Shown here: positions 28,360 through 29,058 of the stretch, piece after piece
Numbering within the stretch: position 1 is the stretch's first letter
How the letters are laid out: each line of letters opens with the position of its first letter
From: a virus
Lineage: Duplodnaviria; Heunggongvirae; Uroviricota; Caudoviricetes
Virus record (IMG/VR): IMGVR_UViG_2568526230_000009
Strand: one strand, 5' to 3'
DNA length: 44,644 bases
The notes under the pieces: model-generated
What the model was told of the DNA's origin: nothing
The model's input: the letters and a program-made list of their open reading frames with translations, nothing else
The model's database searches: none
Translations under genes and position numbers: made by a program

Positions 28360-29058
28360 TTATATTTTTCCATATTTTTTTCCGTCAAATCGAATCATGC
28401 CAGGATCAAGAAAATTAATTAAATCGATTAACGCGTGCTGTATTCTGATTAGCCTTTCTTTATAAATTCCGATATCTCTTGTCATATTTATCACTTCATT
28501 GTTTAAATCTAAAAAAAATGGCTCATTGATAAAGCAATTTTCCTTTGTGAAACTGCCGTAACCTATGCAATCAAATCCAGTATCTGTTGATATCAGCATC
28601 TTTTCTGCAATAGCTCTCTGCTCTCCTATGAAAAACATAAAATACTGACCAAAGACGTCTGTTTGGATTAATGAGTTAATATTGTTCTGTAATCTAATAA
28701 ACTCCCTCATTTTTTTATTTTTTTCTAGGCTAAGGTATTGAATGTCTATGCGGGCAGCTTCTGTCCATGCAAAAAACTGGGAAAAAAGAAAAACAGTATT
28801 GTTGATAACATAATCTTGTTGGCGCTTATTCCCATTATGATAAAACTCTTCAATGAACCCCAATTCTAATATATTATAAATACGGCTTTGTAAGTCTGAA
28901 GCTGAGCGAATTAACGGTTCAATATAGTACTGATGTTTTCTCCTTACATCCAGTGATTCATTGAGCTTGTTTATTCTATTCTGATTATAAGTAGATATAG
29001 CAATAGAGATTATAGCTATTGCACCACTAATAAAGCTTGAAATTAATGCCGTACCCAT
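28360..29058 (-). CDS. Hypothetical protein with N-terminal TM helix, in low-GC DNA
   Basis: 232 aa; strongly AT-rich codon usage unlike the phage backbone. Confidence 0.5.
   Translation of the reverse strand: MGTALISSFISGAIAIISIAISTYNQNRINKLNESLDVRRKHQYYIEPLIRSASDLQSRIYNILELGFIEEFYHNGNKRQQDYVINNTVFLFSQFFAWTEAARIDIQYLSLEKNKKMREFIRLQNNINSLIQTDVFGQYFMFFIGEQRAIAEKMLISTDTGFDCIGYGSFTKENCFINEPFFLDLNNEVINMTRDIGIYKERLIRIQHALIDLINFLDPGMIRFDGKKYGKI

Follow-up and report, generated by a model that had tools for sequence, protein, structure and literature searches.

What does a solitary, AT-rich gene for a membrane-anchored protein do inside a temperate phage, and does it act alone? The question is raised by an open reading frame (ORF) of 232 codons at 28360–29058 in a 44,644-nucleotide (nt) stretch of viral DNA (Caudoviricetes; IMG/VR record IMGVR_UViG_2568526230_000009), the whole of which we call the window. 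The window is an Escherichia coli prophage that combines lambda-type head, antitermination and replication genes with P2-type baseplate and tail genes; its integration site adjoins the tRNA Leu-Cys-Gly cluster and pgsA. An earlier note on this DNA, written from its letters alone, had described an orphan gene of this kind and guessed from its architecture at an abortive-infection or exclusion factor. We find that the gene is real, that its product has a simple one-helix membrane topology, that the cassette carrying it is mobile and sits in a slot of variable content, that the protein is homologous to the single-transmembrane (1TM) proteins associated with certain reverse transcriptases (RTs), and that it has no partner gene. 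Our leading interpretation, to which we would give slightly less than an even chance, is that the gene encodes an autonomous membrane-tethered anti-phage factor expressed from the lysogen. We infer this defence role from the homology to a component of a defence system, from the presence of the gene in two independent cargo slots of phages, where nucleases are otherwise found, and from the autonomy of the gene and the purifying selection upon it.

The gene and its relatives

The gene and the signals close to it are as follows.

28360..29058, minus strand: coding sequence (CDS) of the 232-residue membrane-anchored protein (WP_000536231.1), with an ATG start
29066..29070, minus strand: Shine-Dalgarno sequence AAGGA, 7 nt 5' of the ATG, found by sequence inspection
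29101..29130, minus strand: promoter-like TTGTTA-18-TAAAAT, 43 nt 5' of the ATG, a consensus match only

The ORF had been placed correctly in the earlier note; it lies on the minus strand, and it is a real gene. This follows from a comparison with the copy in phage P2-EC58, in which the ratio of nonsynonymous to synonymous substitution rates (dN/dS) is 0.25 and the CDS is more conserved than its flanks. The two copies differ at 42 nucleotides of the CDS, 16, 6 and 20 of them at codon positions 1, 2 and 3 respectively, and at 20 of 232 amino acids; identity is 93–98% in the CDS and 68–90% in the flanks, so that no part of the shared DNA is better conserved than the CDS. At the position equivalent to AAGGA a ribosome binding site is annotated in the P2-EC58 record. 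The promoter-like site is weak evidence, since a promoter scan of the region returned 10 sites against 11.4 expected in shuffled sequence and thus did not rise above chance. A search of 5,426 complete E. coli genomes finds the 1.6 kb around the gene in 425, with an identity of at least 99% in 409, and the carriers include EC958 and other O25b:H4-ST131 strains. The protein is annotated as hypothetical in E. coli SK1144, and its RefSeq product name is either hypothetical or ‘lysogenic protein’. A G+C content far below that of the phage had been pointed out before and is plain in the numbers, with a fraction of 0.32 in the CDS and the cassette around it and 0.481 in the whole window; sliding windows give 0.324–0.331 across 28001–30000 and 0.45–0.58 over most of the phage.

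Neither the Pfam and NCBIfam collections nor the sequences in the PDB contain a match to the window protein, and a Pfam scan of 40 of its relatives was likewise negative, so that the earlier description of a domain of about 200 residues that could not be recognised was a fair one. Remote homology and structure prediction, which the same note had suggested as a check, did yield a relative. All 40 aligned family members match the PADLOC model RTasTM PDLC03799 (best E 9.8e-11) and 30 of them match PDLC03013. These two models describe the 1TM protein of the ‘RT-nitrilase + 1TM’ system, because the 229-residue ‘1TM’ protein of the validated system from E. coli E101 (protein 2 of pFR76; Table S2A of Rousset et al. 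2022, PMC9122126) scores E 5e-164 and 1e-122 against them. When the profile of the window family was aligned with hhalign to the pFR76 1TM protein the probability was 95.5% (E 1.5e-8), and against a profile of 1TM relatives it was 96.4% (E 1.3e-9, over 129 columns). The two groups have in common the motifs Y..x.T.F...Q.F.W....R and EQ..IG...C..Y..F., and the window protein has the build of the 1TM protein, with about 230 residues, one N-terminal transmembrane (TM) helix and a helical C-terminal domain. Models made independently with AlphaFold2 (AF2) agree from end to end in the order of their elements: the TM and long helix come first, then two helices, a short one, a beta-hairpin, another short helix and finally two helices at the end (predicted local distance difference test, pLDDT, of 85.9 for the validated 1TM protein). 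Remote homology between the window family and the 1TM protein is thus well supported by profile and model comparison, at about 21% identity and below the level of membership.

TM proteins have been described beside class 3 UG/Abi RTs (UG5-large and UG1) as clusters 85 and 1858 (Mestre et al. 2022), and the PADLOC RTasTM models are probably these two clusters. UG1 and UG5-large RTs have a TM partner in a minority of cases only (PMC9226505); the TM gene drt1b stands beside about 18% of drt1 (UG1 RT-nitrilase) genes, and a Hailong-like channel role proposed for it is speculation (PMC13275509). The RT-associated clade that we recovered comprises 29 clusters, all from Enterobacterales, in which the TM gene overlaps the 3' end of an RVT_1 gene of about 960 codons by 4–8 nt. 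The window gene is neither directly downstream of an RT or RT-nitrilase gene nor coupled to one, and no RT gene was seen in the window, in four further contexts with Pfam-annotated genes or in 79 genome loci. One might suppose from the homology to RT-coupled TM proteins, and from a long ORF-free stretch upstream of the gene (29059–30245), that it is the decaying leftover of a two-gene RT and TM system that has lost its RT. This idea is effectively refuted: the dN/dS value is that of a gene under constraint, the ORF is intact in more than 400 genomes, no RT was seen in the 79 loci, identity to the RT-coupled clade is as low as stated above, and the solitary family, with 1,921 clusters, is far larger than the 29-cluster RT-coupled clade. 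Since a relative persists under purifying selection without an RT, a protein of the 1TM type may have an activity of its own.

How large is the solitary family? The window protein belongs to phrog_5606, which it matches over its full length (residues 1–232 of 232, E 7.1e-163); 290 matches were found at 90% clustering, and the cluster that is 100% identical to it (P0001) bears the NCBI name ‘lysogenic protein’. An exhaustive profile search of clusters at 50% identity gave 1,921 representative clusters at E ≤ 1e-3 and 420 at E ≤ 1e-30, from Proteobacteria, Acidobacteriota, Cyanobacteria, Actinobacteria, Planctomycetes, Nitrospirota and Bacteroidota, and about 209 loci were confirmed among 185,579 species genomes. 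The word orphan used in the earlier note therefore holds in the sense that there is no partner gene, and fails in the sense that there are many homologues. Nearly all members are 230–280 residues long, and their layout is uniform: after a short N-terminus comes the one TM helix, followed by a charged linker helix whose length varies and by the conserved domain. An alignment of 40 sequences that reaches down to 34% identity has 23 invariant positions, most of them polar, and the invariant motifs are EPL..A..DLQSR..N, Y...NT.F..Q.FAW.E..R, F.GEQRA, C.GY and Q....L....LDP. Residues D55, R59, W98, E100, R103, E146, Q147, R148, C164 and D218 are among the invariant ones. The family is mainly chromosomal and is occasionally captured by phages. 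Two representatives, of 557 residues (P0129) and 622 residues (P0131), continue into a C-terminal chymotrypsin-like serine protease with the motifs SNHVL, DAAVAR and GDSGS and a weak Pfam match to NAL1_N; such rare fusions mean that the module can couple to enzymes in cis as well as in trans.

No recurrent partner emerged across the 79 loci from a batch scan of 149 flanking ORFs with Pfam and PADLOC; at most four of the 149 shared any Pfam family, and those reflect local synteny. Some distant homologues do have neighbours from defence systems or mobile elements, among them SIR2 with HerA and the PIN, MNT and MqsA toxin-antitoxin genes. The batch scan added a type I restriction enzyme, JukAB, TnpB and Uma2, and reading of the sequences added an HsdR-like type I restriction subunit, a STAND NTPase with WD40 repeats and a large helicase. 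Taken together these neighbours are at most suggestive of an enrichment of the family in defence islands.

The same family-wide data bear on a quite different role for the protein. As a non-defence accessory it would be a membrane-tethered regulator or adaptor. It would bind a small molecule or partner, a conserved one, and would govern some host function such as envelope or stress physiology, and the phage would carry it as a lysogenic-conversion gene for host fitness. Invariant and mostly polar positions maintained from Enterobacteria to Cyanobacteria and Streptomyces speak for such a role, as do neighbours that are often housekeeping genes and the rarity of the family on viral contigs, and fusions to a protease and to a LuxR-type helix-turn-helix domain fit a regulatory module. 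It is harder to reconcile with the patchy, horizontally transferred distribution of the family, with the occupation of phage cargo slots in which nucleases are otherwise found, and with the fact that the sole characterised homologue belongs to a defence system. We regard this role as rather unlikely, and as the strongest rival to anti-phage activity; superinfection exclusion, a part in the phage's own lysis and a decayed RT system are less likely.

The literature searched on WP_000536231, ‘lysogenic protein’ and P2-EC58 contains no functional study of the protein. The sequence has been in databases since the P2-EC58 record was made, and the link to RT-associated 1TM proteins, the size of the family and its solitary nature were not found in that literature.

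Topology and predicted fold

28990..29052, minus strand: single N-terminal TM helix ALISSFISGAIAIISIAISTY, codons 3–23, rich in Ser, Gly and Ala, found by a hydropathy scan

That the protein has one N-terminal TM helix, as the earlier note had read it, is borne out by hydropathy, by the AF2 model and by the aligned relatives. In a Kyte-Doolittle plot with 19-residue windows the value exceeds 1.6 only for windows that start at residues 1–6, and the maximum elsewhere is 0.89. All 40 aligned relatives have the single N-terminal helix and none has a second one; about 43% of the helix across the family is Gly, Ala or Ser (about 8 of 19 residues). On average 0.17 lysine and arginine residues precede the helix, against 3.85 among the 20 residues that follow it. 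Under the positive-inside rule such a distribution indicates that the N-terminus is outside and the C-terminus inside, and hence that the conserved domain would be cytoplasmic.

The AF2 model of the window protein (pLDDT 85.5, predicted template modelling score, pTM, 0.79) is helical except for a small beta-hairpin at residues 155–164, and one helix spans residues 3–65. A Foldseek search of the PDB and of viral structures (BFVD) returned nothing at E ≤ 1e-3, and there were no abortive-infection effector structures among the fold matches listed. The best-ranked matches were ClyA-type pore-forming toxins and were not significant (Foldseek E 0.15, TM-score 0.24); significant structural similarity to the ClyA family of alpha pore-forming toxins, including its hydrophobic beta-tongue, was not seen.

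A small membrane protein whose TM helix is rich in small residues, with ClyA-type folds at the head of its (non-significant) matches, invites the thought of a function in the life cycle of the phage itself, be it that of a holin-like or lysis-timing membrane protein or that of a toxin during induction. The gene lies about 7 kb from the lysis cassette, with its holin and endolysin, at 20171–21386, and is not part of it, and its product, with a cytoplasmic domain of about 200 residues, does not have holin-type topology. Unrelated cargo replaces the gene in sister prophages (below), and most of its homologues are not in phages at all. A role in the life cycle of the phage itself therefore appears very improbable to us.

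The cassette and its cargo slot

The DNA around the gene has the following features.

28088..29816, no strand assigned: single-gene cassette of 1.73 kb in common with the P2-EC58 Z region (blastn, 86% identity)
27920..29844, no strand assigned: variable cargo slot between a gene for a 201-residue TM protein and an LprI-family (lipoprotein) gene
28142..28175, minus strand: G+C-rich terminator-like hairpin with a stem of 12–13 bp, 185 nt 3' of the stop codon
29059..29816, minus strand: AT-rich upstream part of the cassette, with short ORFs only and no conserved ORF

The P2-EC58 ‘Z-region’ record (AJ512683.1) aligns by blastn from its positions 33–1762 to window 28088–29816, and its annotation shows ORF1, a ‘putative lysogenic protein’ (CAD54907.1), with inverted repeats on either side. 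The P2-type copy occupies the classical Z/fun slot in four complete E. coli genomes, with the tail fibre assembly gene on one side and the tail sheath gene on the other. A recent survey places a defence hotspot inside the P2 tail genes, in agreement with an older accessory-gene hotspot of classical P2 (PMC13586616), and the other variable region of P2-EC58 encodes the Abi-P2 reverse transcriptase (PMC9508834). Providencia rettgeri has a relative 59% identical to the window protein, encoded in the remains of a P2-like element with a DUF2971 gene as one neighbour and a tail fibre assembly gene as the other; the same element has an AAA_15 ATPase gene and a gene of 375 codons near ogr, so that two cargo slots are apparently filled there.

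In the lambdoid-type prophage of the window the slot is variable as well. In a prophage of strain D217-5 homology to the window ends at 27919 and is restored from 29845, with a GIY-YIG nuclease gene and two small ORFs between these points. In a prophage of HCP5S3_I2 homology returns at 29810, and the slot is filled by a DUF262 gene and its 196-residue partner. Both slot flanks are kept at 92–98% identity in the sister prophages, and the alternative cargo (2699–5226 in L091, 1035–3436 in L092) is AT-rich. The right breakpoint is nearly constant in three independent comparisons (29810, 29816 and 29845), and the left one is at 27919 or 28088. The gene thus has the marks of a moron or cargo cassette: it is autonomous, its composition deviates, and the slot that it fills has different contents in phages that are otherwise syntenic. 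The slot has the look of a defence-type hotspot, here in a non-P2-type prophage, and the locus is a clean example of one cassette moving between the cargo slots of unrelated temperate phages.

The hairpin downstream of the gene is the inverted repeat reported in the earlier note as 11 bp at 28141–28172; the repeat is real, and its arms are 12 nt, perfect and slightly displaced (28142–28153 and 28164–28175, with a 10-nt spacer). Terminator scoring on the strand of the gene gives 13 pairs, 7 of them G-C, and the tail TATTAAATTT. The RNA folds with a free energy change of -25.4 kcal/mol (z = -4.7), and none of 200 shuffled sequences folds as well. Both arms are unchanged in P2-EC58, where there is one change in the loop and the surrounding 100 nt is merely 81% identical; there the hairpin falls within the annotated ‘left inverted repeat’. 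At its right end the P2-EC58 cassette has the hairpin arm a third time (AJ512683.1 1754–1775; AGCAGACTGTCA against AGCGGACTGTCA), which gives the cassette imperfect terminal inverted repeats. No third copy is present in the window within 2 mismatches, and a degenerate remnant can be seen by eye near 29805–29830. The arm motif might be a recombination site. Upstream of the gene, 29059–29816 is presumably leader and regulatory DNA; its identity to P2-EC58 (68–87%) is below that of the CDS, and Rfam has no match over 27500–30500. An ORF of 43 codons within it (29213–29344) was considered as a small partner gene and rejected, as it lies in the least conserved stretch and has a stop codon in the P2-EC58 copy.

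Occupation of the Z/fun slot brings superinfection exclusion into play, since P2's own fun(Z) gene excludes T5. The protein would in that case block entry of an incoming phage genome from the cytoplasmic face of the inner membrane, and the cell would survive. Such a role would suit a prophage-encoded inner-membrane protein with a single TM helix that needs no partner gene. No sequence relation to annotated exclusion proteins was detected in PHROGs, however; most members are chromosomal and outside prophages, in phyla with very different envelopes, which is hard to square with a phage-specific block to entry; and the partnership of a relative with an RT-nitrilase, which is cytoplasmic, speaks for a cue inside the cell. 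We consider exclusion quite unlikely.

Several further observations concern the genes on either side. An approximately 80-nt direct repeat is present at 27816–27897 and 31238–31320, such that the last 27 or so codons of the 201-residue protein's gene are repeated just past the LprI gene; the AT-rich cassette and the LprI gene are bracketed by this duplicated 3' end, and the same duplication is found in the two sister prophages for which slot positions are given above. It may mark how cargo modules are exchanged at the slot. To the left of the cassette an ImmA/IrrE metallopeptidase gene (a match to PADLOC capP at E 2.4e-25) and the gene of the 201-residue protein lie together at 26794–27897 with a 9-nt gap between them; the 201-residue protein apparently has two C-terminal TM helices and belongs to phrog_5346, of unknown function. 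This pair is retained when the neighbouring cargo is swapped and is absent from P2. We considered the two genes as functional partners of the window gene and rejected them for these same reasons; they may be a separate regulatory or defence module. Arrays of clustered regularly interspaced short palindromic repeats (CRISPR) in E. coli contain a 35-nt match of 100% identity to part of the ImmA/IrrE gene (27000–27034), which in H66 was confirmed to lie in an annotated array, and several genomes have a CRISPR match of about 45 nt, at 93%, to the start of the LprI-family gene (30238–30281). On the far side of the slot an ORF6N/antirepressor-family gene (31344–32180) matches the PADLOC candidate family PDC-S05 at E about 1e-9.

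Function and comparison with known systems

If the gene does encode an anti-phage factor, how might it work? It would be a self-contained ‘moron’, with its own ribosome binding site and terminator hairpin in a 1.7-kb AT-rich cassette that temperate phages would swap between cargo slots. A single N-terminal helix, rich in small residues, would hold its product at the inner membrane, with the conserved helical domain of about 190 residues on the cytoplasmic side, and this domain could detect a cue of infection. Action would then follow at the membrane. The protein could associate with itself and so impair the integrity or energisation of the membrane, which would amount to abortive infection, or it could interfere with a step of infection that is associated with the membrane. 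The abortive-infection or exclusion guess of the earlier note is supported in its direction by the homology to the 1TM protein, by the Z/fun slot and by the defence-type cargo that takes the place of the gene elsewhere, a support that does not extend to a specific function.

Several observations weigh against an anti-phage role. Most neighbours of the distant homologues are ordinary metabolic genes (ALAD, the YchF GTPase, acyl-CoA dehydrogenase and short-chain dehydrogenases/reductases, for example), and strong PADLOC matches are few among the 149 neighbours, in a scan made without a control set. Viral contigs, of which 2.9 million were searched, hold 7 loci of the family, and 3 of these are this same cassette. 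The window protein itself has a single weak match in PADLOC (RTasTM, E 1.8e-5, 22.4 bits; a true member scores 541 bits). DRT1 can defend without drt1b, on whose role the DRT1 paper only speculates (PMC13275509). Polar motifs that are invariant across phyla are less what one expects of a fast-evolving sensor of phage than of a protein with a conserved biochemical activity or ligand, and the rare protease fusions suggest that the domain may be a regulator or an anchor rather than an effector. Lastly, an IS1 element lies in the 3' end of the gene (equivalent to about 28360–28470) in a few genomes, such as that of E. coli MSB1_4E, leaving a product of 197 residues; since IS1 truncates the gene in those isolates, it is dispensable there.

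We can also imagine a broader scheme, possible though doubtful in our view, in which the solitary family represents a widespread single-gene immune module in its ancestral and autonomous state. Its member would be a helical sensor that faces the cytoplasm on a one-TM tether; it would recognise some conserved ligand that accompanies infection, conceivably a nucleic acid or nucleotide, and exert its effect at the membrane; a diverged copy would have been recruited by the RT-nitrilase systems of enterobacteria, and protease fusions would have arisen elsewhere. If this were true, the result would be a new defence family and a hint at the job of the unexplained TM partner of RT-nitrilase systems. 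If the protein is protective at all, it represents a compact single-gene, membrane-tethered defence family that current defence catalogues have missed: PADLOC-DB 2.0 sees it only as a sub-threshold RTasTM match, and Pfam and NCBIfam are without a model. A phenotype, if there is one, could matter for phage susceptibility in the ST131 lineage.

Among known membrane effectors, the SLATT 2TM proteins, Hailong HalA and the TM effectors of retrons and of cyclic-oligonucleotide-based anti-phage signalling systems (CBASS) resemble the window protein in mode of action by analogy only, in that they are thought to collapse membrane integrity upon a cytoplasmic signal; they have two to four TM helices, whereas the window protein has one. 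SLATT proteins in particular combine two to three TM helices with their domain, and none of the 40 family members has a SLATT match in Pfam. HK97 gp15 and P22 SieA are prophage superinfection-exclusion membrane proteins and, like the window protein, are single-gene, prophage-encoded inner-membrane proteins in moron positions; there is no sequence relationship to them detectable in PHROGs, and most members of the window family are not prophage-borne.

ORF1 of P2-EC58 is the same gene in the same cassette with the same hairpin, and differs in its surroundings, as it lies in a P2-type tail slot and the window copy lies between the 201-residue and LprI-family genes of a phage with lambda-type head and regulatory regions. 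Drt1b is like the window protein in being a small TM protein, in its case attached to an RT-nitrilase defence gene; one of 40 window-family members matches the PADLOC Drt1b model, weakly (E 0.005), and a direct relationship is not established.

The closest parallel is the RT-nitrilase + 1TM system. Its known TM gene overlaps the RT gene, whereas the window gene is solitary and has its own terminator; the window family has invariant motifs of its own (EPL..A..DLQSR..N and LQ.ALIDL..FLDP), is about 60 times larger and spans many phyla. Against these differences stand a length of about 230 residues, one N-terminal TM helix, a helical domain, two common motifs and the AF2 order of elements, and both genes are AT-rich cargo of mobile elements in Enterobacteria.

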